Origin: a virus
Direction: 5' to 3' (one strand)
IMG/VR virus record: IMGVR_UViG_3300026488_000013
Location: 103,051 to 167,050 of that record
Length of the DNA stretch: 64,000 bases
The notes beneath the pieces are model-generated. The model made no database searches and was not told the origin of the DNA. It was given only the letters and a program-made list of their open reading frames with translations. Every line of letters starts with the position of its first letter. The first letter of the stretch is position 1. Of the stretch, positions 20,853-35,083 are shown one piece after another. The position numbers and the translations under genes are program-made.

Positions 20853-21563
20853 TCACATTTTATACTTTAAATTTCTTATTGCATCGATTAATTCTATTAC
20901 AAAACTCAAATTTCTATAGTATGGAACCTCTAGGATTTTATCTAATTCGCCATCTTTAATATCATATCCAAATATTTTATTTATTGCTCTTTTTATTATA
21001 TATTTGGCTATATTGCTGCTTGTTATATCATCCTCATACTCGAATTCATATATTATATCTTTATAATTTTCAATTTCATTTACTAGAATATCTTTCAAAA
21101 TCTCTATAATTCTGTTATAAAATCTTTCATCTATAATTCTCTTCATCAATGATTTTATTTTGAAAATTCCCTCGGTATGAGGGGATAATAATATTTTTGT
21201 AATATTTGTAGGAATATTTCCGAATTTTCTGTTAAAATACTCTTCAATCAAATACTCGAACTCTTTTCTAAGATACTCATTTTCAACCCAATTTATGTAT
21301 TTGAGTTCCACTATAAGCTCCATTATATCTTTTCCATTTTTATCTTCTATAATTTCTTTATCAGATATGATATAAATGTTAAAGTCATTGACTATTGGTG
21401 TGTCCTTTTCTATATTTATTATTGGCTCTAAATATATAGCATATATCTTTGTATTATTATCTGTTTTATATTTTTTATCTATTTTTGTCACGATTTTGAC
21501 GGTTCTAGCCATCATAACCGATATATTTCCGTAGAAATATGAAAAAAAATTAATATAAAGCAT
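20853..21563 (-). CDS. Hypothetical protein
   Basis: 236-aa ORF; start may be at the later MMAR. Confidence 0.6.
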   Translation of the reverse strand: MLYINFFSYFYGNISVMMARTVKIVTKIDKKYKTDNNTKIYAIYLEPIINIEKDTPIVNDFNIYIISDKEIIEDKNGKDIMELIVELKYINWVENEYLRKEFEYLIEEYFNRKFGNIPTNITKILLSPHTEGIFKIKSLMKRIIDERFYNRIIEILKDILVNEIENYKDIIYEFEYEDDITSSNIAKYIIKRAINKIFGYDIKDGELDKILEVPYYRNLSFVIELIDAIRNLKYKM

Positions 21564-22710
21564 TTATTCTCTTCTCCAGGTTTTTGTTTAAATATTTCTG
21601 AACACCGGCCTGGGCGAATTTAATCATGAATTTTGAATTCATTGTTATTGGACTTCCTATATTTTTATCGTTTAGGATAAATGTAGGAACAATATTTACA
21701 CCATATGATACCGCATTAAGTTGAGGTTTTACAACCTTTCCTTGTAGTTTATCATAATATGAATATTTGAAGTTATCCCCTTTCTCATACCAATATGCGG
21801 AGGTTTTCTTTAGTTGTTTCCGCAAACTCATATAATCATCTATAAATCCAACCATTATACCTACTTGGTTGTCGTGTTTTTCAAATAGTGCCCCACTAAA
21901 TGTTAGAACATATTTTTTCAAATATTTCTCTATAAATTCATCGATAGTTATTTCCCTGATTTTAATCTTATTACTGGTCGGATTATCAACTACTATTACT
22001 CTAAACTTTTCCCATTCTTTATCACTTTTTATACCTAAATATAGTTTTAGGTATTCTTTATATTTTCTAATATTACCCTTCGCTACAATCCAAAAGTATA
22101 TCAATTTATTTGTTTCATCATCCTTATATGACAAAAGATGTGTATAGTTTTCTAGAAATGGTATTAATCTGGTTTTTAATACAATGTAATCCTCACCGTT
22201 CATTATTCCATCTAAAGTATATTCGGCAAAAACATACATGAGTTCATCCAATATTTTTAAAGTGAATTTTAGATTGTTTTCTATAATCTCTTTTTTCTTG
22301 TTTGGCTTATACCATTCTACAAACGATAAAATTAGTCGATTAAATGATTCTTTAAACGAATTTTTAAGATTTAAAATCTTAGATTTTAAGACCGTTTTCT
22401 TCTTAGGTTTATCTGTGTTGACAAATTCTTGCACATATTTAGAGAACTTCCTTAATGCATCGATAAGCTTATACGTTTGGGGAGGATATACTCTGGCCCG
22501 AAGAGTAGTGAAGTCTATATTAAACATTTTTACTGTAGAAGGATACATGGATGTGTTGTGAACAAGAATATAATAATCAGATTTTGGGTCTTTGGCAAAA
22601 AATCTTTCAGTATCTTCTACAGAAATATCATATACATAATCATCCTCAATTTCTATAATTTCTATGCTTTCAATTTCGTCAATAAACCAAACTCTTCTTC
22701 TTTCTATCAT
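21550..22710 (-). CDS. polB: Family-B DNA polymerase, part 2 (IntC + second half of motif A + fingers/motif B)
   Basis: ...YILVHN|TSMYPS; motif B QGKVVKPQLNAVSYG; IGSPIT; AGGGGG SD. Confidence 0.9.
   Translation of the reverse strand: MIERRRVWFIDEIESIEIIEIEDDYVYDISVEDTERFFAKDPKSDYYILVHNTSMYPSTVKMFNIDFTTLRARVYPPQTYKLIDALRKFSKYVQEFVNTDKPKKKTVLKSKILNLKNSFKESFNRLILSFVEWYKPNKKKEIIENNLKFTLKILDELMYVFAEYTLDGIMNGEDYIVLKTRLIPFLENYTHLLSYKDDETNKLIYFWIVAKGNIRKYKEYLKLYLGIKSDKEWEKFRVIVVDNPTSNKIKIREITIDEFIEKYLKKYVLTFSGALFEKHDNQVGIMVGFIDDYMSLRKQLKKTSAYWYEKGDNFKYSYYDKLQGKVVKPQLNAVSYGVNIVPTFILNDKNIGSPITMNSKFMIKFAQAGVQKYLNKNLEKRINALY
22555..22710 (-). other. Split intein C-fragment (52 aa)
   Basis: Block F YVYDISVEDTERFFA, block G ILVHN followed by Thr+1. 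Confidence 0.93.
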
Positions 22711-22750
22711 TTGTGCCCCCTTTCTCTTTTTTTTAAAAAATGGAAATTAT

Positions 22751-23371
22751 CTATACATTAAAGCCCGGTATTTTTATTCCGAAATCATCTATTAATATAT
22801 CTAATCCGCTCCATTCGTAGAAATCATAAACATTATGTCTTTTCGGAGGTGGCTGTTTATGAATTATATAAAGTGCTGCGTCAGTCATAAGACCTGCAGC
22901 ATTATTTGCAATATTTATTAATTCATCCTGAACCGTTGTTGATGTTAAAAATGACATTAAATTATCATATGCGATGTTACCAACCAACTTGTCGTTTTGC
23001 TCATCTACCTGGAAGCAATTATCCAAATCACAGTCAACATATTTTGTATAAAATGATATTTTTTTTATTACTGCGCAAGTCTCGGTAGGGGGTAAAAATA
23101 ATTTATCTCTAAAATACGGCATTGTTTCGAACATATTATGGACGAATTGACTGTAGTAACCAAACAGTGTAGTAAATATTCTTTGTTTAAAAACAGATGC
23201 TTCTATAAATTTATAAGAATTATAAGCAGATAAAATGTTGTTTATTAATGAGTCTAAATCCTTTTGGTATTTGGGAGCTATTTTCATCCAATAATTTCTA
23301 AGTTCGGGTATGAACTTATTTTTAAAATTTCTAAGCAAGTGAATATCTTTAATATTTATATCACAAGCCAT
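22751..23371 (-). CDS. Hypothetical protein
   Basis: 206-aa ORF, GAGG SD. Confidence 0.65.
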   Translation of the reverse strand: MACDINIKDIHLLRNFKNKFIPELRNYWMKIAPKYQKDLDSLINNILSAYNSYKFIEASVFKQRIFTTLFGYYSQFVHNMFETMPYFRDKLFLPPTETCAVIKKISFYTKYVDCDLDNCFQVDEQNDKLVGNIAYDNLMSFLTSTTVQDELINIANNAAGLMTDAALYIIHKQPPPKRHNVYDFYEWSGLDILIDDFGIKIPGFNV

Positions 23372-23483
23372 TTATAAAACCTCACGAAAAAAAATGTCGC
23401 CGGATGCTCATTATTTTAGTGATAGGGCGGTTGACTGATTTAAAATGAAAAAAATATTAAAATTAAAGTTAAGAGATAATTTA

Positions 23484-24515
23484 TTATTCTATGTAAAAAT
23501 CTATCATCATTCTTCTTATTTTATCTTCTATATCTGCCGGTAATTTATTCAAATAGTCGTGTATTCTATAATCCAACATTAATACCATTTTCTCGAGTTC
23601 TTTAGTATTATTTGTTTTAGCTATTTCTATGAGTTTGTTTATAATATCATCGCTATCTAATTCGATATATTTCTCCAATTCCTCGATATTATCTATTGTT
23701 TCTTTTTTACATTCATTTATTTGCTCATTTACATTATCCTCACATTTGGTTATTTCTTCTTTTAAATTATCCAACTGTTTTATTATCTTATCAAACGGAT
23801 ACTCGATATATTCTAAATCATGTTTCATATATTCCACTTCTTTTCTTCTTATCATCGCATTTATATATTTTTTAATCAATCTGCTTATGTTGGCGTCTAT
23901 TTTTATAATACTTTTCAATTTGAACACATATGTATTTCTATATTTCGAGATTTCTTTATCGGGTATTTCTAATTTCTTGTATACAGTATAATATTTGGTC
24001 GAATATACTCCCGATGGACCGTATACGGGGTCGTTCACCTCATATTCCAATATATGTTTGGTTTTTGTCTCTTTTGTATATCCAACATATTTATCATCAA
24101 TATGGAAGAGTATAAAATACCCTTGGTTTTTATTTCCTATTATTATTTCAAATATTGCAATGTCTTTTATATCCTTATTCTTAATTTCATTATATATATC
24201 TTTCAAAGCTTCTATAGGTAGGCAATCTATATATCTTAAATATTCATCTAAATGGATTCTCCAGTCCCATTCATATATTTGTTCTAATATTTCATTTTCA
24301 AAATCTTCTATTTCTTTTATCTCATGTTCGAAATATTTAATAATTTTTTTTATATTCTTTTTATCATTTTCGTGTTTTTCTTTTAATTGTTCTATTTCTT
24401 TCTTTATATGTTTAATTTTATCCACCAATTTATCTATATCGCCAGAAATATACAATTCTTCTATCGTATTTTTTATAACTTCTAATTCCCTAAGAATTAG
24501 TTCTTTTTCCATCAT
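23484..24515 (-). CDS. Hypothetical coiled-coil protein
   Basis: 343-aa ORF, E/K-rich helical ends. Confidence 0.65.
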   Translation of the reverse strand: MMEKELILRELEVIKNTIEELYISGDIDKLVDKIKHIKKEIEQLKEKHENDKKNIKKIIKYFEHEIKEIEDFENEILEQIYEWDWRIHLDEYLRYIDCLPIEALKDIYNEIKNKDIKDIAIFEIIIGNKNQGYFILFHIDDKYVGYTKETKTKHILEYEVNDPVYGPSGVYSTKYYTVYKKLEIPDKEISKYRNTYVFKLKSIIKIDANISRLIKKYINAMIRRKEVEYMKHDLEYIEYPFDKIIKQLDNLKEEITKCEDNVNEQINECKKETIDNIEELEKYIELDSDDIINKLIEIAKTNNTKELEKMVLMLDYRIHDYLNKLPADIEDKIRRMMIDFYIE

Positions 24516-24586
24516 AGTGCGTTAATATCTATACAAACTAAAAAAGATAAAAAAACATATACGAAAAACAAAAACACGGAAAAAAC

Positions 24587-25015
24587 TTATTTTTTCTCCA
24601 TTAACAATTCTATATTATCTATTCGCCTAAATATTATTCTAAGATTTTTATCTATCACGAAATCTCTAATTTTATATCTTCTTTTAATATCCTTTAATAC
24701 AACTTCGGGCGGGAGTTTTTTGGTATAAAGTGTGCTCTTTATTCTATATCCGCCCCACACTATGTCATTATCGTATGATTCAACTATGAATCTCCCATAT
24801 GCAAATTTTTTATTTATTTTTTCAAAATCTTTATCTGACAGTCCTAATTCTTCTTTTAACGCCTTTTCTATTTCAGGGATAATATCTTTTAGTCTATATT
24901 TCGGTATAAACACATTTGTTTTAATATATATTGTGTTTTCTTTTGGTATGTATACCCCCATTATTTCTAGTTTCTTCTTGATTAATTTTTTCTCTTTGTT
25001 CTCTTTGTTTCCCAT
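24587..25015 (-). CDS. Hypothetical protein
   Basis: 142-aa ORF, GAGGAGG SD. Confidence 0.7.
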   Translation of the reverse strand: MGNKENKEKKLIKKKLEIMGVYIPKENTIYIKTNVFIPKYRLKDIIPEIEKALKEELGLSDKDFEKINKKFAYGRFIVESYDNDIVWGGYRIKSTLYTKKLPPEVVLKDIKRRYKIRDFVIDKNLRIIFRRIDNIELLMEKK

Positions 25016-25068
25016 AAGACCTACCTCCTCTAAAAATTTTTTTTATACTAAATTATCCGTAAATTAAC

Positions 25069-26307
25069 TCATATAATTAAATTATCCATTGCCTTAGCAA
25101 TCACCCTTATATGGTTCTGTGCGTCAGGTTTTATTCTCTCGTTTATAAAATCTTCAATGAAACGACGCAACCCCGCTATTACAATATTAGTAGATTTGAA
25201 TTGTTGTAATTCATCCCTAGCGGCTTCTTTTTTAAATCCTCTTTTTAATTTATTTTCATATTTTAATATGCGGCTCCACTTATCTGTTATAAGTCCGTCA
25301 AAATATGATACAAGTGTATCTACTTTCCACTCCGGGTTTGCATAATTAATTTCATCCATCAAAATAATAACTTCTGATTTTCTAGTTTTAGTGTATCTAT
25401 CAGAACGTTGTAAGAAATTCAGTGTTTTATGTCTAACTATCTGGTGAGTAGTCACTTTATCGGTTTTTTCAATAATGAAAAACTGGTTTTGCCATTTTCT
25501 AATCTTCTCGGCCAGTGCTAATTTATATTCATCTGATGATTTAGATATTCTATAATAATTGGGTATCCTGATAAAAAATAAATTCATATATTCAAACTCA
25601 CATGAAGAGTGATTTTTGATAGTCGGACTTATCTTATAAACGATAGGATTATAAAATTTCTCTGTTATCCATTTTTTGCCCTTTAATTTTTGTATTAACT
25701 CTTTATTATATATATCTTCTAAATTATGTTGGTATCTTTCGAAATTTGTAAATGCGTCCGAATTAAAAATATCGTTTAGCACGTTAGATAAATACGTGAA
25801 CAAATCTCCGACCCAGTAGGTCGGTATATTTTTATAATATTCACAAATATTTATGTTATTGAGATTTAGAAATTCATCTTTTTTATAAGCGTTTCTGATA
25901 TATTCTGCAAACGCCCTATCAGAGATTATTATTAAATCAAAATTCTTATCTATTTCATCTACTCTTGCCGCACCGTAAGGCAGTTTCAACAATGATTTTG
26001 TTATAACATGTGAATCTGGGACAATAAAATAAGTATATGTGGTTCCTGTTATGGATGTATGGCCGTTGTATATCAAATTAACAACAAAATTAAAAATATT
26101 ATATGGTTCATTTGTATTTTTAACTTCCGCATCCAAATATAAATCTAAAATATCGCCTTTATTATAATAACAAACTCTGGCACCCAAATAGTGCCATAAT
26201 TTCTTGTTCCAAAATATATATTGAAGTATATGCTTTCTATTACCAGCAGGAAATAAAAAGTTTAATACCTTTTCAAATGCTTTTATTTCTTCTTTTGTCC
26301 AAGTCAT
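25069..26307 (-). CDS. thyX: Flavin-dependent thymidylate synthase
   Basis: ARVCY, GHTSI, HQIVRHKTLNFLQRSDRY (RHRx7SxR motif), EAAR, AQNHIR. Confidence 0.85.
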   Translation of the reverse strand: MTWTKEEIKAFEKVLNFLFPAGNRKHILQYIFWNKKLWHYLGARVCYYNKGDILDLYLDAEVKNTNEPYNIFNFVVNLIYNGHTSITGTTYTYFIVPDSHVITKSLLKLPYGAARVDEIDKNFDLIIISDRAFAEYIRNAYKKDEFLNLNNINICEYYKNIPTYWVGDLFTYLSNVLNDIFNSDAFTNFERYQHNLEDIYNKELIQKLKGKKWITEKFYNPIVYKISPTIKNHSSCEFEYMNLFFIRIPNYYRISKSSDEYKLALAEKIRKWQNQFFIIEKTDKVTTHQIVRHKTLNFLQRSDRYTKTRKSEVIILMDEINYANPEWKVDTLVSYFDGLITDKWSRILKYENKLKRGFKKEAARDELQQFKSTNIVIAGLRRFIEDFINERIKPDAQNHIRVIAKAMDNLII

Positions 26308-26327
26308 TGTTAACCCTCCTTTTTTCG

Positions 26328-27854
26328 CTAAATTAAAATCAACTTATCTCCTATTTTTAATTTGCCAGCATCCTTTAATTCTATTCTTTGTTTTTTATCG
26401 TTATAAACAAAAATTGAATGATTTTCTGTAACTTTTATTACAGCTCCAGATTTTGTTTTTATTTTCAATATTTTGTATTTTCTTTTATGTTGTATTTTCC
26501 CTTTTATCTTTTTCCAAACAACATTACCATTTTTATCTAATGTTAAAGTTTCATCTCCTTCCTCAAACTTATATTCGCCAATCGGAACCTCTCTAATTAC
26601 TCCATTTTCTTTTTTAATCAATATTAATTGGTCATAAGTTAATGATTGGTCAAAATCCATTATTAGTCCTGTTATATATCTGGGTTTGGTTTTTTTAACA
26701 TATGCTCCGAATATTTTTGTTGAAAAATATGTCTCTTTAAATACATCCATTTGCGATGGATATGGGAATTTTTCATATGGCAAAAATGACCTGATTTCGG
26801 AATTATCTCTTTCGGTTAAGATATTACGCATAATGTCTTCGCCATATTTTGTTGCCCCACGGTATGCCATTTTAAACAGTGATTTGGACATTCGTCGTAA
26901 AGAATTATAAGTGTTTATAATGTCCAACTTTTTATCCAGGGCTTTAACCAATAAAGTATCTACAATGTTATAAAAAATATAATCTTCTATATGTTCTTTA
27001 TATGCCAAATCGAAATCTTTCCCTTGTGATGTTTTTAATTCAACCTTTTTAATGCCGAGCTCTTGTTTAGAAATATAGTCCAATTCATATGTTTCTTGAG
27101 TATCACCAAAACCTAACCCTTCGCCGGGCTTATACATGTATAAAATATCAACAAACATCAAATCTGGTGCTTGCAATCCATAGGCTTTCGAATATTGCAC
27201 TGTTTTAAATTTGGATATTACTTCGCCCGGGTTGTCTACTCCTAGATTAATAAGTCTGTTATAAATATATGGGAAGTCAAAATCATCCGAATAAAACCCG
27301 GCTATCGTCCAGACATTTTGCTTTTGAATTAAGTCGAATACATCTTTTATCATTTGCTTCTCTGCATCTATACACGGTTCGCCGCAGGTCTTAGCTTGCA
27401 GATTTTTATTATTCTTCGGAGTATAAATCTTTAATATTACTTTTATATCCTCTTCCGTCTCGAAAATTTCTTTAAGTTTTGAATAATGAGTATTTATAGA
27501 TTTTTCCAAACACTCTCTTAATTCATTCGGATTTTCGATAAAATATTTGTGTTGTTTATATTTGGGGTTTAACAAACAAAAAGCATAAACTTCATTTTTA
27601 TGAGAAAATGCCAATGAAATCAATACTATTGGATATTCCGCCTTGGAAGGTTCGGGAAACACTCCAACAAATCTAGTAAATACCTCTATGTCTATGTATG
27701 CTTTCCTAAAAAATTGTGGGGCATCATAATTATCTTTTTCTTTTCTCTTTTGATACCACTCCAAAGCACGCTGTCTGTCGGGCGAGTATTCTAATGAATA
27801 AAATTGCCATGGTTTTAATTTTTTCAAATTAGCTGCCATGCTCAAGACCCCCAT
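26328..27854 (-). CDS. polB: Family-B DNA polymerase, part 1 (3'-5' exonuclease + first half of motif A + IntN)
   Basis: ExoI IDIEV, ExoII GFYSDDFDFPY, ExoIII YNIVD, GAYVK, MDFDQ|SLTYD...; likely start at the second Met (MAANL, 27839). Confidence 0.9.
   Translation of the reverse strand: MGVLSMAANLKKLKPWQFYSLEYSPDRQRALEWYQKRKEKDNYDAPQFFRKAYIDIEVFTRFVGVFPEPSKAEYPIVLISLAFSHKNEVYAFCLLNPKYKQHKYFIENPNELRECLEKSINTHYSKLKEIFETEEDIKVILKIYTPKNNKNLQAKTCGEPCIDAEKQMIKDVFDLIQKQNVWTIAGFYSDDFDFPYIYNRLINLGVDNPGEVISKFKTVQYSKAYGLQAPDLMFVDILYMYKPGEGLGFGDTQETYELDYISKQELGIKKVELKTSQGKDFDLAYKEHIEDYIFYNIVDTLLVKALDKKLDIINTYNSLRRMSKSLFKMAYRGATKYGEDIMRNILTERDNSEIRSFLPYEKFPYPSQMDVFKETYFSTKIFGAYVKKTKPRYITGLIMDFDQSLTYDQLILIKKENGVIREVPIGEYKFEEGDETLTLDKNGNVVWKKIKGKIQHKRKYKILKIKTKSGAVIKVTENHSIFVYNDKKQRIELKDAGKLKIGDKLILI
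26331..26645 (-). other. Split intein N-fragment (105 aa, Ser1)
   Basis: Block A SLTYDQLILI, block B IKVTENHSIF, ends AGKLKIGDKLILI-stop. Confidence 0.93.
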
Positions 27855-27920
27855 ACTTAGGTGTTAACAAAAAAATAAATTCAAAACAAAGGACGTATAC
27901 AAAGTATTTTTATTTTTTTC

Positions 27921-28613
27921 TTAGAAATCGAAATCATCGTCTTCCATTTCTGAGCTATCAGAAATATCATCTATAACATTTTCTATTTGTTCTACATTTT
28001 TATTTGGTTGCTTGGATTTGTTATTACCCATTCTTAAATTTCCATTTTTATTTTCATCCGACACAAATTCATATTTATATTTTTGTAAATAATCTGTAAT
28101 TATAAATTCAAACACGCTTTTTAAATATGAAAATGCAACTAGTGGTATAGCAATCGAATATGTTTCGGGTGGATTTTTAGTTTTATCTATTACTGTTATA
28201 GTAAGTCCATTTTGGGTTAATATAAGATTATACGGCCTATTTGGACGATAAATTGATATAGAAATAGATTTACCATGCTCATTTTCTCTTTCTTGTATAG
28301 ATTCAGGTTTTACTATTTGTTTTGCTAAATATTTAAATCTCTTCGCAAATTTGTCAAAAGATATTATTCTTGGATATTCCTCTAAAATCCATTTTATAAA
28401 ACTTACTTCCAATGTGGATAATTTTATAGTAACCTTATTTTCAATTATTTGATTATTGTTTTCTACTTGTCTGAATATTGGAACTTTCCTATTATCTTCA
28501 ACTTGTTTATGAGACACAGGTTTATATATTGTGAGATATATTCCTTGGCTCGATACGGATACATCTATGCGTGCCCGCTGTGTTACAAACAATTGCTTAA
28601 CATTTACAGCCAT
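27921..28613 (-). CDS. Putative single-stranded DNA-binding protein
   Basis: Lies between pol genes; acidic tail EMEDDDFDF; AGGAGG SD before MAVNVK at 28613. Confidence 0.45.
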   Translation of the reverse strand: MAVNVKQLFVTQRARIDVSVSSQGIYLTIYKPVSHKQVEDNRKVPIFRQVENNNQIIENKVTIKLSTLEVSFIKWILEEYPRIISFDKFAKRFKYLAKQIVKPESIQERENEHGKSISISIYRPNRPYNLILTQNGLTITVIDKTKNPPETYSIAIPLVAFSYLKSVFEFIITDYLQKYKYEFVSDENKNGNLRMGNNKSKQPNKNVEQIENVIDDISDSSEMEDDDFDF

Positions 28614-28702
28614 AAAAATCGACCTCCTTTTTTTTTGTTCTATACGATTAATATCCATACAACTTATCAAAAGAAAAAACAAGAAAACAGAAATAACAAA
28701 AA

Positions 28703-28935
28703 TTAAAATTCTTTGCAGAATAATACCATAGAATTAAGCCAGGATAACACACAATTAGTTGTTCTTTCGATATATTTTATAATGTCATCCTTATTGCGAA
28801 AATGAGATAAATTAATGCTAATTTGTGTACATTTTTTATTATCTTTTTCAATTATCCCTACACAACAAATTGCAGCTTTTCCTGCAAAGAACTTGTTCAG
28901 ATTTCCATCTTCTTAATAATATTATCAGTGCTCAT
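28703..28935 (-). pseudogene. Small (77 aa) gene with a 1-nt frameshift near codon 8
   Basis: AAAGGGGGTG SD + ATG; adding one A gives MSTDNIIKEDGNLNKFF...VLFCKEF-stop, which fills the intergenic gap. Confidence 0.45.
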
Positions 28936-29500
28936 TAAACACCCCCTTTTGGTTTAGCTTGCAATAATAAATAAATCTCAACTCGTTATTTCCTAAAACA
29001 CCCCGTCTTCTTAAATCCTCCAATATTTTATCAGGTAGTTTTATAAAACCTAATTTTTCAAGCAATCTTATAGAAGCAAGATTGTCCATATTAACCGTAG
29101 CATGGATTGATGATTTATTCAATGTTTCCTTAATATATTTGCAGATGTATTCCAAATTTTCATGTATTATAGTATATGCAATACCATATCTTCTACATTC
29201 AGGATAAACATATATGTCAATAAAAACATTTTTATTTTTGTCTATCGGAATATCCAATCCGAGAAATCCCAATATATCCTCTCTTCCAGTTTTTAAATTT
29301 TTTATTATATATACGAAATATATTGACTTAAATCTTTTTAAAAAATTTTTATCAGCCAATCCTATTAACTCTTCAATCTCTGGTAATAATGCTCCGTGTT
29401 TTGCTAAAAAATCTATAAATTTCTCCAATCCGTTTATTATTTTAATATGTATAATATATGACCTATCTTCTAATTTAATTTCGTAAAATAATTTCATCAT
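28925..29500 (-). CDS. GNAT (RimJ/RimL-like) acetyltransferase
   Basis: IYVYPECRRYGIA, NMDNLASIRLLEKLGF. Confidence 0.85.
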   Translation of the reverse strand: MMKLFYEIKLEDRSYIIHIKIINGLEKFIDFLAKHGALLPEIEELIGLADKNFLKRFKSIYFVYIIKNLKTGREDILGFLGLDIPIDKNKNVFIDIYVYPECRRYGIAYTIIHENLEYICKYIKETLNKSSIHATVNMDNLASIRLLEKLGFIKLPDKILEDLRRRGVLGNNELRFIYYCKLNQKGVFNEH

Positions 29501-29512
29501 TCGTTTTCTCCA

Positions 29513-32035
29513 TTATGGAATTAAAAAATTAAAAAAATAACCAGAATTAGAATGTTCCGTTTTAATAGCCGAAATAATTTTGTCAAAATTTTTTATTTTT
29601 TCATCTAATACCTTTTCTCTTTGTGTCTGAAAATCTATCTCTATACCAACTTCTTTCAATTTGTCCAATAGGAATTTGGGTTTTATTCCCGGCGGGACAA
29701 AAATAACATTTATTTTTTCCTTTATCCACTGTAAAGGATTTTTCATTGTAAATATCTCCTTTAATTGATAACCCGACAACTCGGTTTTTTTCTTGGTTTT
29801 CAATATTTCGTCTATTCTTTTTTTCAACTTTAATGGATTAGTTATTTTAATAGAAAGTCTGTATGATTTTTTACCGGGGCGCAATTCATCCTTAAAAATT
29901 GTATTCCAAAATTTGGCTGCTAAAACATACGCAGGTTCCTTTTTATAATTTGCCTTAGACCATGAGCTGGGTATTCCGATATATTTTAAGTTTAATTCTC
30001 TAACACTCTCGTTATATCTATTTACCCAATACATTTTCCTTTCAATATATACTGCAGGCAGTTTTTCGATTTCTCTTCTATAATCTATAAATGTTTGAAT
30101 AATATCCATTTGTAGTTCCTTAGTAAATGGGGCCGCATCGGAGCGAACAACCTCAAATCCGGTAATTTTAACTTTGGGTGGGTCATATAAAACTTTATCA
30201 TCCATTAACATATTCACAAAATATCTTTTTTTAGCATCAATAAATGCTATCGCATCCATAACAATTTCTGTTTTGAAATCTAATGTGTTCCATTCCGGAG
30301 ACACATTACAATAATTCAAAACTTCCCCTTGCCATCTTTGCTTTAGATAATCGTTGATTTCTATAGCCAACGGTTTTATAAAATCTTCATATACCTTTTT
30401 AACTATTTCTGGTTTTGATAAATCCCAACCTCTTTCTAATATCCTAGTGTAATTATCAATAAACACAAATAATGAATCAGTGTCTGAATACAGAATATTC
30501 GGAATATTGTTATCTTTCTCAACATCCATAAAGAATGTCGGTGTTGTTATTATATTTTCTTCATCATCATTGATATCAAATACTGCGGTTTCACCCGTCG
30601 CAAATGGTCTATATCCAGAGTATTCTTCAATTTTATTTTCCAATTTGGTCTTAATCTGTAATTTATTAAACTCATACTCCAATTCTTCTAAAACATAATG
30701 TTTCCTTTTATACATTTCAGTATGCGATTCTATTATGTCTTTAAATTCGTCTAGCTTTGAACGCTGTAAATCTTTATAAAATTTGTAATCATATATTATT
30801 TCCGAATTTAGATTCTCACGGTTTTCAATAAAAGAAATTTCTTTTATATCGTTGGTTCTATCCGTAAAATACACTGTATGGCTAAAAGGGATTTTCCAAT
30901 AATAGATTTCATCCGTATCTTTTTTAGTAGTTATAAACAGATATTCGTTTGTTTCCTGAAGAATATTAATATCTAACAACAAGTATTCATCTGGTATTTC
31001 ATCGGGAGAACTTACCTTAAATACATTAATATCTTCCTGCTCAAAATTATTGTTTGTTTTCCCTGGCCTTGATGCAGATTTAATATGTTTTATTTCTTCT
31101 TGTAAAAATGAGAAGAATTTTTCATATTCAGGCGGAGTATCTATATTTTCACGTATATATTTTGATGGGTGAGTTAAATAATACACTTTTATATTTTTTT
31201 CATTAATTAATTGCTGGAGTTGCTCCGAGGATTCTATTAAATTCCTATTTTCACCTTTCCCTAAAACAACAATTATATCTGGGTCAAACTGATTTATTTC
31301 TTCTATCAGATTATTGACACAGAAGTTCTTAAAAATATCGATTAACGGAACTTCTGAGACATTTTTCAATGTTTCTTGGTTAGAAGTTGAACATTTTATG
31401 GAGTTGGTAAAAATATATCTACAATTCAATTGTTCGGTATATTTTCTTAACAATTGACCTGCTTTTCCAACAAAAGGCTCGCCTCTCTTTGCTTCTTCTG
31501 TCCCCGGATTTATCCCAACAAAAAGTATAGTAGGTTTGTCGATATTACTATTAAAAATTTTATAAGAAACTTTCCTTAAATCCTTATTTAAAAGTGGACA
31601 GTTCAAACAATATTTAGAATAAATATTTTCATATTTTTTATACTTATTCCTATAGTACAGAACAAAACTATCCTCTATATTTTTGTTATTGTCAATTTCT
31701 GATAAAACTGGATGTGAATAATTGTTGATTGGATTCTTAGTATAAGGTAGATTCTTTAATTCGTCTAGGTTAAATTCGCCGGGATTATTGAAGTATAAAG
31801 GGATAATTTCATTTAAAAAATAAACGATTAAATCCTGAAGTTTATATTTATTGTGAGCACTTTTATTTAGGTCTAACAATTTAATAAAAATATTATTAAG
31901 TCGAGGGGAATTAGAAAATATTCTAAACAGTTGCTTCAATACGAAACTATAATTATCTCTTATTATATCGATTTCGTCGTTATTTAGCTTTTCTCCATTA
32001 AAAGGTTTTACAATCAGGTCTAACAACTGTCGCAT
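29513..32035 (-). CDS. polB: Uracil-DNA glycosylase (family-4-like) fused to family-B DNA polymerase part 3 (motif C + thumb)
   Basis: UDG: CLNCPL, FVGINPGTEE..GEPFVGKAGQLL, TNSIKC, FC, THPS; Pol: LYSDTDSLFV, DFKTE, AKKRY, KITGFEVVRSD. Confidence 0.88.
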   Translation of the reverse strand: MRQLLDLIVKPFNGEKLNNDEIDIIRDNYSFVLKQLFRIFSNSPRLNNIFIKLLDLNKSAHNKYKLQDLIVYFLNEIIPLYFNNPGEFNLDELKNLPYTKNPINNYSHPVLSEIDNNKNIEDSFVLYYRNKYKKYENIYSKYCLNCPLLNKDLRKVSYKIFNSNIDKPTILFVGINPGTEEAKRGEPFVGKAGQLLRKYTEQLNCRYIFTNSIKCSTSNQETLKNVSEVPLIDIFKNFCVNNLIEEINQFDPDIIVVLGKGENRNLIESSEQLQQLINEKNIKVYYLTHPSKYIRENIDTPPEYEKFFSFLQEEIKHIKSASRPGKTNNNFEQEDINVFKVSSPDEIPDEYLLLDINILQETNEYLFITTKKDTDEIYYWKIPFSHTVYFTDRTNDIKEISFIENRENLNSEIIYDYKFYKDLQRSKLDEFKDIIESHTEMYKRKHYVLEELEYEFNKLQIKTKLENKIEEYSGYRPFATGETAVFDINDDEENIITTPTFFMDVEKDNNIPNILYSDTDSLFVFIDNYTRILERGWDLSKPEIVKKVYEDFIKPLAIEINDYLKQRWQGEVLNYCNVSPEWNTLDFKTEIVMDAIAFIDAKKRYFVNMLMDDKVLYDPPKVKITGFEVVRSDAAPFTKELQMDIIQTFIDYRREIEKLPAVYIERKMYWVNRYNESVRELNLKYIGIPSSWSKANYKKEPAYVLAAKFWNTIFKDELRPGKKSYRLSIKITNPLKLKKRIDEILKTKKKTELSGYQLKEIFTMKNPLQWIKEKINVIFVPPGIKPKFLLDKLKEVGIEIDFQTQREKVLDEKIKNFDKIISAIKTEHSNSGYFFNFLIP

Positions 32036-33783: not shown

Positions 33784-34209
33784 TTACTCGTCCGCTATAT
33801 CTCCCTGCAGTTTTCGTAAGTTATGTATTTCCTTGTGGCAAAGTTCACAAATAGTAATACTTTTAACTTCATTGTTAAGATGTTTTTCCATTATTAATTT
33901 AGCCAAATCGATTGGAGTGTATGATAATATAGAATTATCCTCAATTAATTCAGTTATTACATTGTAGATTACTTCAAATAAGGTTGGGTCATGATGAACT
34001 TCCGGTTTTGCATTGTCTGGTGGGCGACCACAATTAGGACATGCAGTATATCCTTTCTTTTTTATTTTAGCCCAAATATCATATTCGGGAGTTTTACGAC
34101 AAAGGGAAGAGATTTTTTTGGTTAATTTAATTATATTTTTCTCTTTTGTTAAATCGTATCCGTAATAATCTTGTATATCTTCCGTAGAATAAAGTTTATA
34201 CACAACCAT
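33784..34209 (-). CDS. HNH-like zinc-binding protein
   Basis: CPNC, EVHH, ICELCHKEIH. Confidence 0.7.
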   Translation of the reverse strand: MVVYKLYSTEDIQDYYGYDLTKEKNIIKLTKKISSLCRKTPEYDIWAKIKKKGYTACPNCGRPPDNAKPEVHHDPTLFEVIYNVITELIEDNSILSYTPIDLAKLIMEKHLNNEVKSITICELCHKEIHNLRKLQGDIADE

Positions 34210-35083
34210 AGTTTAAAGATAAAACGGGTAAAATTACCTGTTCATAAACTCGTTGGAAATTATAATTTATTAGGTCTTGTTTAGAAATATTGTTTACATC
34301 AATAAATCTCTTTTTGTTCGGATTATAAATTTTTCCAAATTCAAATCCTCCTATTAGCTTCTGTATAGGTTCGGCCAATTCGGATGTTGTTAAAACGTCT
34401 TTCATAGATTCTATATATCGTTTAATAGTTCGTGCCTTATCGAAATAATCATCCAAAGGAGTTTTAAGATTTATAATGTTTAAAATATACTGAGAAATAT
34501 ACTTTAAATTGCCCTTTATTACAATTTCCTCGGGTGAATAATAAATAAACAAATCGCTACCAGTTCTTATCAGTTTATAAACAGGTTTCTCCTTCACTTT
34601 AAACCCTTTTAGTTTTCTTTCCAATTTAGAGTGTTCAGATTTTTTACTATATATTCCAACTATAGCACCATCACGAACAAACTCAAATAATACCGCCGGT
34701 TCGTATTTATCATTAATATATTCAAACAATAATTCTTTATATTTTTTTTCTATTTCGTTTATGAATTTGTTAAACTCTTTTTCTTTATCCTTAAATATTT
34801 TATATTTTAGTGCTTTAAATGCGCATTCATGTTGTTTTTGTTTATTATGGAATATCTTTGTATTTTCATAACATTCCCTAATCTTCTCAAATATATCTGG
34901 GAAGAAATTTACCAGTATAGTTTTAAAAGCTTTGCTTAAATCAAATTCTATTATTTTCATAAATTCACTTGTTTTAACACAATACCTATCCGACAAAGAA
35001 TATTTAACTAAATTCTTCGTTTCTATTTCTTTGAGTTGGGTTTCATAGAAGTTTTTATCTTTAGTTAGCATAAATTCAAACAT
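34196..35083 (-). CDS. Hypothetical protein with possible minimal polymerase-palm motifs
   Basis: IIEFDLSKAF..IL (motif-A-like) and FVRDGAIV (motif-C-like). Confidence 0.35.
   Translation of the reverse strand: MFEFMLTKDKNFYETQLKEIETKNLVKYSLSDRYCVKTSEFMKIIEFDLSKAFKTILVNFFPDIFEKIRECYENTKIFHNKQKQHECAFKALKYKIFKDKEKEFNKFINEIEKKYKELLFEYINDKYEPAVLFEFVRDGAIVGIYSKKSEHSKLERKLKGFKVKEKPVYKLIRTGSDLFIYYSPEEIVIKGNLKYISQYILNIINLKTPLDDYFDKARTIKRYIESMKDVLTTSELAEPIQKLIGGFEFGKIYNPNKKRFIDVNNISKQDLINYNFQRVYEQVILPVLSLNYGCV

Follow-up and report, generated by a model that had tools for sequence, protein, structure and literature searches.

A probable T4-type replicative DNA polymerase divided among three permuted viral genes and joined to a uracil-DNA glycosylase domain

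Replicative polymerases are usually single chains. A region of the IMG/VR virus record IMGVR_UViG_3300026488_000013 raises the question of how far such a chain can be taken apart. The window analysed here is the final 64 kb of this 167-kb record (64,000 nucleotides, positions 103,051 to 167,050; 27% G+C, completeness estimate ~60%). Between its positions 21550 and 32035 every long open reading frame (ORF) lies on the minus strand, and polymerase motifs A, B, C and KxY are all present, spread over three ORFs. Can these pieces make one enzyme, and how did they come to stand in this order? Our results indicate that the region probably encodes a replicative family B DNA polymerase (PolB) of the T4/RB69 gp43 type, in three genes with permuted order, which would be rebuilt by protein trans-splicing and by non-covalent assembly at two sites.

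Three genes, one split intein and one open junction

Three window proteins tile phrog_262, the PHROG DNA-polymerase profile of 856 positions, end to end:

26328-27854, minus strand: 508-residue ORF, matching phrog_262 positions 105-395 (E 1.8e-36)
21550-22710, minus strand: 386-residue ORF, matching phrog_262 positions 405-568 (E 1.7e-12)
within 29513-32035, minus strand: 840-residue ORF, whose residues 507-819 match phrog_262 positions 567-835 (E 8e-16)

Pfam detects DNA_pol_B_exo1 (E 2.3e-9) and the N-terminal half of an intein in the first, the C-terminal half of an intein in the second and a uracil-DNA glycosylase (UDG) in the third. The usual succession, in which an N-terminal domain (NTD) is followed by exonuclease, palm, fingers, palm and thumb, is not found on one polypeptide; it is distributed over three genes in permuted order, with one junction that would be non-covalent.

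A preliminary description of this DNA had already proposed a polymerase in three genes, with one trans-splicing and one non-covalent junction, and the profile tiling and the presence of intein halves at the first junction only agree with it. Its details also stand. Motif C, which it placed at ~30473..30490, is YSDTDS at residues 516-521 of the 840-residue ORF (30473-30490), followed by KKRY and GFEVVRSD; the UDG that it saw on the same chain at ~31150..31610 corresponds to Pfam PF03167 at residues 167-308, in a domain spanning about 31073-31615; and the spliced product, estimated at ~735 residues, would have 737, from exteins of 403 and 334 residues.

The first junction involves four features:

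26646..27854, minus strand: exonuclease (exo) N-extein, residues 1-403 of the 508-residue ORF (phrog_262, RB69 alignment, alignment A6)
26328..26645, minus strand: N-terminal half of a cysteine-free split intein, S404-I508 plus stop, with block B TENHS (Pfam)
22555..22710, minus strand: C-terminal half of the split intein, residues 1-52 of the 386-residue ORF, ending ...ILVHN (Pfam)
21550..22554, minus strand: C-extein, residues 53-386 plus stop (phrog_262; end point shared by the relatives' chains carrying exo and motifs A and B, the exo-A-B chains)

The N-extein contains the tail of the NTD, the 3'-5' exonuclease, a second segment of the NTD and the palm's first strand, which bears the motif A aspartate. 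D55, E57, D193, Y295, D299 and D402 are invariant in alignment A6; the first five form Exo I (D55/E57), Exo II (D193) and Exo III (Y295/D299), and D402 is the catalytic aspartate of motif A, in the ...LIMDFDQ that ends the extein at residue 403. Residue 49 of the exo chain aligns with RB69 residue 108, and the start of the chain corresponds to RB69 residue ~60-80, which leaves it without the first ~60-80 residues of the NTD. The database gene call for this chain begins five codons downstream of the start of the 508-residue ORF.

The N-terminal intein half begins, as S404-LTYDQ, directly after ...DFDQ. It matches Pfam Intein_splicing over residues 420-507 (E 2.8e-8; 34.2 bits, slightly below the cut-off of 35.8) and Hint (E 3.3e-5), and the C-terminal half, encoded four genes away, matches positions 121-150 of the Intein_splicing profile (E 0.005). 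The splicing blocks are in place: S404, TENHS, ...VHN and T53 as the +1 residue. Relatives without the intein, at metagenomic loci L012 and L009, have LDQTSMYPS at the position of the window's ...DFDQ, intein, TSMYPS; removal of the intein thus yields the conserved host sequence, and the uninterrupted motif in these relatives indicates that splicing would restore motif A. A protein 73% identical to the exo chain (P0157, from locus L014) is encoded by a gene of the same build, exo plus N-terminal intein half.

The C-extein supplies the remainder of motif A (TSMYPS), an insertion of ~165 residues, the fingers and motif B (KPQLNAVSYG). Compared with phrog_262, the insertion (about residues 95-260 of this A/B chain, 21553-22554) separates motif A from the fingers; it is a clade feature, common to the exo-A-B chains of L012 and L009. 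A phmmer search of the A/B chain against PDB sequences gave no significant polymerase match.

The second junction lies between motifs B and C, and its far side is a single feature:

29513..30544, minus strand: C-terminal palm half and thumb (C/thumb), residues 498-840 of the 840-residue chain plus stop (phrog_262, BLASTP)

The A/B chain terminates in ...KFAQAGVQKYLNKNLEKRINALY, 24 residues past KFAQ and after a helix, without an intein half, and Pfam finds no intein match upstream of motif C in the 840-residue chain. The absence of an intein half on either side implies, as the preliminary description had argued, that the palm would be completed non-covalently. When the pieces are laid on single-chain PolBs, the end of the A/B chain abuts the start of the C/thumb part (...TPTFFMDVEKDNNIPNILYSDTDS), with no gap and no overlap.

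This break is not confined to the window. An exhaustive HMMER search with residues 310-840 retrieved 228 proteins at E <= 0.001, and the best 150 are mostly stand-alone proteins of 200-360 residues beginning M..F(Y/W)..VE..(I/V)LYGDTDS; ~85 such stand-alone C/thumb proteins share the start point of the window's C/thumb part, so natural fission between motifs B and C is widespread. The window's C/thumb part is 54-64% identical to the stand-alone proteins P0002 and that of L014, and matches residues 793-1023 of the single-chain metagenomic protein P0096 (BLASTP E 2e-15). Against PDB sequences, residues 310-840 gave no significant polymerase match with phmmer.

Some of the stand-alone C/thumb proteins have features of their own. 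Eight (P0015, P0022, P0032, P0033, P0040, P0043, P0048 and P0049) from other phages carry a mini-intein in motif C (LYGD, S...HN, TDS), so inteins have repeatedly entered the same clade at another polymerase site. In P0034 (446 residues) a Toprim_2 domain (Pfam E 5e-15) follows the C/thumb part at the C-terminus, a different secondary fusion. Matches of 400-500 residues were considered as candidate fusions of the NTD with C/thumb and rejected: they carry motif C mini-inteins and, in one case, a Toprim domain. A C/thumb protein from the sister subclade (P0010, NCBI MEM4385969.1) is filed under a Candidatus Anstonellales archaeon metagenome-assembled genome, which may hint at the host or result from faulty binning.

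A probable missing part of the N-terminal domain, and the glycosylase domain

Upstream of its C/thumb part, the 840-residue chain comprises:

31616..32035, minus strand: N-terminal helical domain and low-confidence stretch, residues 1-140 (alignment A8, AlphaFold)
31073..31615, minus strand: family-4-like UDG, residues 141-321 (Pfam UDG E 4.6e-17, phmmer, Foldseek, A8)
30695..31003, minus strand: first part of the PolB NTD, very probably, residues about 345-447 (BLASTP, hhalign, AlphaFold model, VIA-align, complex model)

Residues about 313-450 match only the C-termini of stand-alone proteins of 464-536 residues (P0079, P0082 and P0128), which carry the same helical N-terminal domain and UDG. 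These matches show the 840-residue chain to be one UDG-containing protein plus one C/thumb protein. The HMMER search that retrieved them also returned three single chains of 1100-1122 residues (P0096, P0131 and P0139) with UDG, exonuclease and polymerase domains, whose PolB part matches phrog_262 from position 5-11 (P0096: 11).

What is the segment between the UDG and motif C (YLLLDINIL...IPFSHTVYF)? The preliminary description likened it to the PolB NTD, and we find that it is very probably the first ~80 residues of that domain, missing from the exo chain. In BLASTP, the 840-residue chain is collinear with P0096 from the UDG through this module (residues 143-408 versus 8-286, E 1e-10). The module profile matches the NTD of the single-chain UDG-PolBs (hhalign probability 71%, E 3.6e-5), and the exo-A-B chains of all relatives also lack the first ~60-80 NTD residues.

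Structure models were made for residues 335-455 and 1-455. AlphaFold predicts residues 335-455 as five or six strands followed by a helix, with a mean predicted local distance difference test score (pLDDT) of 85.7. RB69 gp43 stands at rank 4 of the Foldseek list, with the highest TMq (0.40), and gives the longest VIA-align alignment (3kd1_E residues 1-80; Z 3.9, root-mean-square deviation 4.4, 75 aligned), a match that is weak yet exactly where expected.

The module might instead serve the UDG protein as an accessory domain, binding DNA or a partner for example, and the exo chain might simply have a shortened NTD. Several results lean that way and tell against an NTD origin: Foldseek of the isolated module gave no match at E <= 0.001, the top VIA-align rows are generic beta-alpha-beta half-domains (48 residues, Z 5-6) with RB69 at rank 42, and hhalign against T4-like NTDs without UDG found the expected register at no significance. 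In addition, the module always travels with the UDG in relatives. Against this stand its collinearity with the NTD of the single-chain UDG-PolBs, its complementing exactly what the exo chains are missing, the RB69 alignment, and a model of the complex between exo N-extein and module, which scored 0.89, the best of three controls scoring 0.00. The mark for this score is reached by 58/80 solved complexes and 2/110 mismatched pairs, counts that are only rough, custom alignments having been used; the contact agreement between runs was at least 67% and the partner pLDDT at least 78. The module is placed on exo-chain residues 10-50 and 317-359, which in RB69 numbering are the rest of the NTD. The model supports binding and does not show it; because these pieces form one fold in solved single-chain PolBs, its pass may stem from structures learned by the predictor and mainly show likeness. 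On balance an accessory domain appears unlikely, and we read the NTD preceding the exonuclease as divided, its first ~80 residues on the 840-residue chain and the rest on the exo chain, with a weak structural match of the isolated piece (Z 3.9).

The UDG itself is better defined. In both sequence and fold it is closest to family-4 UDGs and UdgX: phmmer aligns it with the Thermus UDG 1ui0 at E 1e-9, with all four cysteines (C143, C146, C215 and C239) aligned, and Foldseek with 1ui1 at E 1.4e-9 (TMt 0.68). The Pfam UDG superfamily is passed at 62.9 against a cut-off of 24.3. The four iron-sulphur (Fe-S) cysteines, N211 and H289-P290-S291 are invariant in alignment A8, across the clade and the single-chain forms, and motif B and the pocket are represented by H289-P-S, N211 and P187-F188.

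Two observations weigh against a straightforward family-4 enzyme. The family-4 models of NCBIfam score best and stay below cut-off (TIGR00758, 46.8 versus 125.3 bits; NF040953, 53.5 versus 250). Motif A of family-4 UDGs is GE(A/G)PG; here it is GINPG, and G(I/L)NPG in the clade, which we take to be the MUG/TDG- and SMUG-type motif, here on a family-4 Fe-S scaffold. Residues 169-193 give a weak local match to the MUG model. Given the sub-cut-off scores and GINPG, we treat both the glycosylase activity and its substrate as putative.

The preceding domain, residues 1-140, has no Pfam or PHROG match and is conserved in the relatives' stand-alone UDG-NTD proteins. It is predicted as helical to about residue 85 (pLDDT 65-86 for residues 1-85, < 50 for 94-139). 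In the model of residues 1-455 the confident modules are 1-85 (helical), 140-321 (UDG) and 336-437 (NTD piece), joined by low-confidence tethers; with a predicted template-modelling score of 0.47, their mutual arrangement is not predicted.

Relatives and the direction of the fusion

Related loci show how the three genes are arranged elsewhere (lengths in residues):

L012/L013: UDG-NTD 459, C/thumb 307, exo-A-B 627, abutting
L009-L011: UDG-NTD 468, ThyX, C/thumb 316, three small genes, exo-A-B 666
L015/L016: UDG-NTD 482, helicase, radical SAM, C/thumb 301, small gene, exo-A-B 679
L005: UDG-NTD 464, C/thumb 342 (partial view)
L006: UDG-NTD 490, 271-residue gene, C/thumb (partial view)
L014: C/thumb, 224-residue gene, GNAT, 228-residue gene, exo with N-terminal intein half (partial view; syntenic with the window)

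The three complete sets (L012/L013, L009-L011 and L015/L016) share the gene trio, the break points and the permuted order. Among the relatives seen, UDG-NTD and C/thumb are two genes (these three sets, L005 and L006). The three-gene permuted arrangement is a clade-wide replicase layout and not a one-off shuffle.

In the window, the UDG-NTD and C/thumb genes are joined by a linker:

30545..30694, minus strand: fusion linker, residues 448-497, part helix and part low confidence, replacing the stop, spacer and start of the relatives

The relatives' UDG-NTD proteins end at the equivalent of residue ~447 and their C/thumb proteins start at ~488-498, and the linker is about as long as the stop codon, the 106-nt spacer and the start codon of L005 taken together. 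A maximum-likelihood tree of the C/thumb parts gives ((window, L014), L005), L006, with 98-100% support; the split forms all group in a single clade, to which no single-chain form belongs. Because the window's C-part nests within separate-gene forms, the fusion is recent and secondary: the 840-residue chain is a real fusion of two neighbouring genes and no relic of an ancestral gene.

This reverses one proposal of the preliminary description, that the fused ends were left behind when exo-A-B moved out of an ancestral gene, since the relatives have two genes, already permuted, and the window nests inside them. The ancestral order that it postulated, UDG-NTD-exo-A-B-C-thumb on a single chain, does exist (P0096, P0131 and P0139). 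Of the intermediate arrangements to be looked for in related phages, permuted layouts with separate genes were found, and none of the relatives seen has the NTD fused to C/thumb.

Is the fused chain itself real? The 840-residue ORF could be an assembly or sequencing artefact that conceals two genes, since all relatives, including the closest (L014 and L005), have or appear to have separate genes, and the window rests on a single contig from one metagenome assembly, which also counts against a fused chain; a word-index homologue search with the 840-residue protein found only itself, one database member. Yet its 50 linker codons are free of stops in frame, where the off-frames have 9-13% stop codons (P about 0.009 for 50 codons open by chance), the linker is partly predicted helix, and an indel would need exact frame restoration. 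The C/thumb gene of L014 comes with a GGAGG and an ATG of its own; upstream of the window's C/thumb part there is neither a ribosome-binding site nor a conserved start. We consider an artefact very unlikely.

Other searches for relatives added little. The word-index search with the exo extein gave two relatives, the module profile search returned only four proteins already known, viral contigs scanned with an alignment of UDG-NTD gave nothing confirmed, and tblastn against GenBank phages matched the UDG domain only.

The conservation of the layout also bears on whether these genes are used at all. Extreme fragmentation in an incomplete record could mean that the pieces are decaying remnants, with replication left to another polymerase in the unsampled ~40% of the genome or to that of the host, and a further polymerase may indeed lie in the missing part, a point to set against our reading. 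The break points are, however, kept across lineages only 25-35% identical, and the catalytic motifs are all intact. No other PolB, PolA or DnaE-type match was found across the 167 kb of this ~60% complete record, and clamp-loader and other replication genes adjoin the polymerase pieces. Decay is highly improbable.

Further genes lie among the polymerase pieces. A 253-residue ORF between the 840-residue and exo genes (27921-28682, minus strand) matches no family, and the acidic tail at its end (...EMEDDDFDF) recalls the C-terminal tails of phage single-stranded-DNA-binding proteins; a homologue, 44% identical, occupies the same place in L014, and the 271-residue gene between UDG-NTD and C/thumb in L006 has an acidic end too. 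A GNAT acetyltransferase gene (28925-29500, minus strand) also has a counterpart at the same place in L014, with 43% identity. A 412-residue ORF (25069-26307, minus strand) matches ThyX only at residues 277-410 (Thy1 profile positions 61-184), and L009 has a ThyX of normal size (206 residues) between its UDG-NTD and C/thumb genes. The ORF at 34196-35083 was considered as a polymerase partner and discarded: it matches no family, shows no similarity to polymerases and resembles only a neighbour gene of L005.

Proposed assembly and comparison with known systems

From these genes we infer the following course of splicing, assembly and activity. The exo chain with the N-terminal intein half and the A/B chain with the C-terminal half would associate through the cysteine-free split intein (Ser1, Thr+1), and trans-splicing would produce a chain of ~737 residues with exonuclease, motif A, fingers and motif B, recreating DQTSMYPS. 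The 840-residue chain would then bind the spliced chain non-covalently at two separate sites. At the first, residues about 345-447 would supply the missing first ~80 residues of the NTD; at the second, the C-terminal 340 residues would supply motif C (D518 and D520), KKRY and the thumb. As D402 is on one chain and D518 and D520 are on the other, the three catalytic carboxylates would come from two polypeptides.

The UDG, with its conserved pocket residues, would hang off the NTD piece by a flexible tether of ~15 residues, as a uracil-recognising module at the template-entry side of the polymerase. The NTD of archaeal PolB is described as recognising template uracil (PMC7544198), which makes a template-side role for the UDG plausible and, by this analogy, reasonable. 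A bolder version, which we regard as doubtful, is that a clade of uncultured phages encoding multisubunit RNA polymerases has a replicase whose Fe-S UDG, with its MUG-type G(I/L)NPG motif, is tethered to the template-entry NTD of PolB as a read-ahead uracil sensor or excision device, a counterpart of the uracil pocket of archaeal PolB; in the window, the fused UDG-NTD and C/thumb would be a two-point staple on the spliced chain.

As for its evolution, an ancestral single-chain UDG-PolB probably broke at two fixed points, and its parts took a new order, in the ancestor of this clade of uncultured phages, giving UDG-NTD, C/thumb and exo-A-B. In the lineage of the window phage, UDG-NTD and C/thumb would later have been fused by read-through of the spacer, and an intein would have invaded motif A and then split.

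This layout shows the extent to which a PolB kept by selection can be cut and reordered, with cuts in the NTD and the palm and one of them mended by an intein. The break points are natural fission-tolerant positions of PolB, useful for engineered split polymerases, and the window adds another natural cysteine-free split intein. The link between UDG and NTD extends UDG-polymerase coupling from family A to family B and offers a testable model of coupling between uracil and replication. For annotation, it accounts for several hundred orphan metagenomic proteins, of ~300 residues as 'DNA polymerase domain' and ~460-540 residues as 'UDG'.

Several known systems share part of this design. A T4-type PolB in separate genes is found in gp43A/gp43B of Aeromonas phages 25 and 44RR; those of phage 25 are described in a review as co-purifying and polymerising unjoined (Petrov et al. 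2010, as reviewed in PMC2988022). The gp43A/gp43B polymerases are two pieces, N-then-C, with a single break, whereas the window polymerase breaks inside the NTD and between motifs B and C, has an intein besides these two breaks, is permuted, with C/thumb encoded before exo-A-B, and has a UDG attached. PHROG families 2062 and 1918 tile a single-chain PolB with a boundary before motif B and probably represent the gp43A/gp43B type.

In PhiKZ, DNAP-N (gp82) and DNAP-C (gp50) form a stable, active 1:1 complex (bioRxiv 10.64898/2026.09.30.755723). As would be the case in the window, whose complex we predict from its genes, the active-site aspartates come from different chains, the genes lie far apart and there is a large clade-specific insertion near the palm. 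Unlike in the window, the PhiKZ break is in the palm insertion past motif A, the NTD is kept with the exonuclease, and there is neither UDG nor intein; the PhiKZ polymerase belongs to a divergent PolB clade, the window polymerase to the T4 type.

Aes123 PolB1, of T4-like Aeromonas salmonicida phages, is a natural cysteine-less split intein (PMC11923092). The window intein is likewise a cysteine-free split intein in a phage PolB gene; it belongs to a different phage group, lies between the catalytic aspartate and SMYPS, and has its halves four genes apart.

Fusions of UDG to PolA are known in SPO1, N4-like and other phages (PMC10201439), and the window's UDG domain has the solved phiLo PolA (9qhs) among its best matches in both sequence and fold. 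Both systems place a family-4-type UDG N-terminal to a phage replicative polymerase. The known fusions are family A and single chain; the window partner is family B, its UDG is tethered to the first NTD part only, and its motif A is of the G(I/L)NPG form.

The single-chain metagenomic proteins P0096 (1100 residues), P0131 (1115) and P0139 (1122) have the module order UDG, NTD, exo, A, B, C, thumb and are collinear with the pieces of the window. They differ from the window in being one polypeptide and in their UDG motif A, (A/G)EAPA, and are ~20-28% identical to the window pieces. We found no literature on single-chain UDG-PolBs of this kind, nor any description of a UDG-PolB fusion or of a three-gene permuted layout, in a search that left most subscription journals outside. 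Split PolBs, PolB split inteins and UDG-PolA fusions are already known; new are the break inside the NTD, a third polymerase subunit encoded by the UDG-NTD gene, and the secondary joining of that gene to C/thumb.

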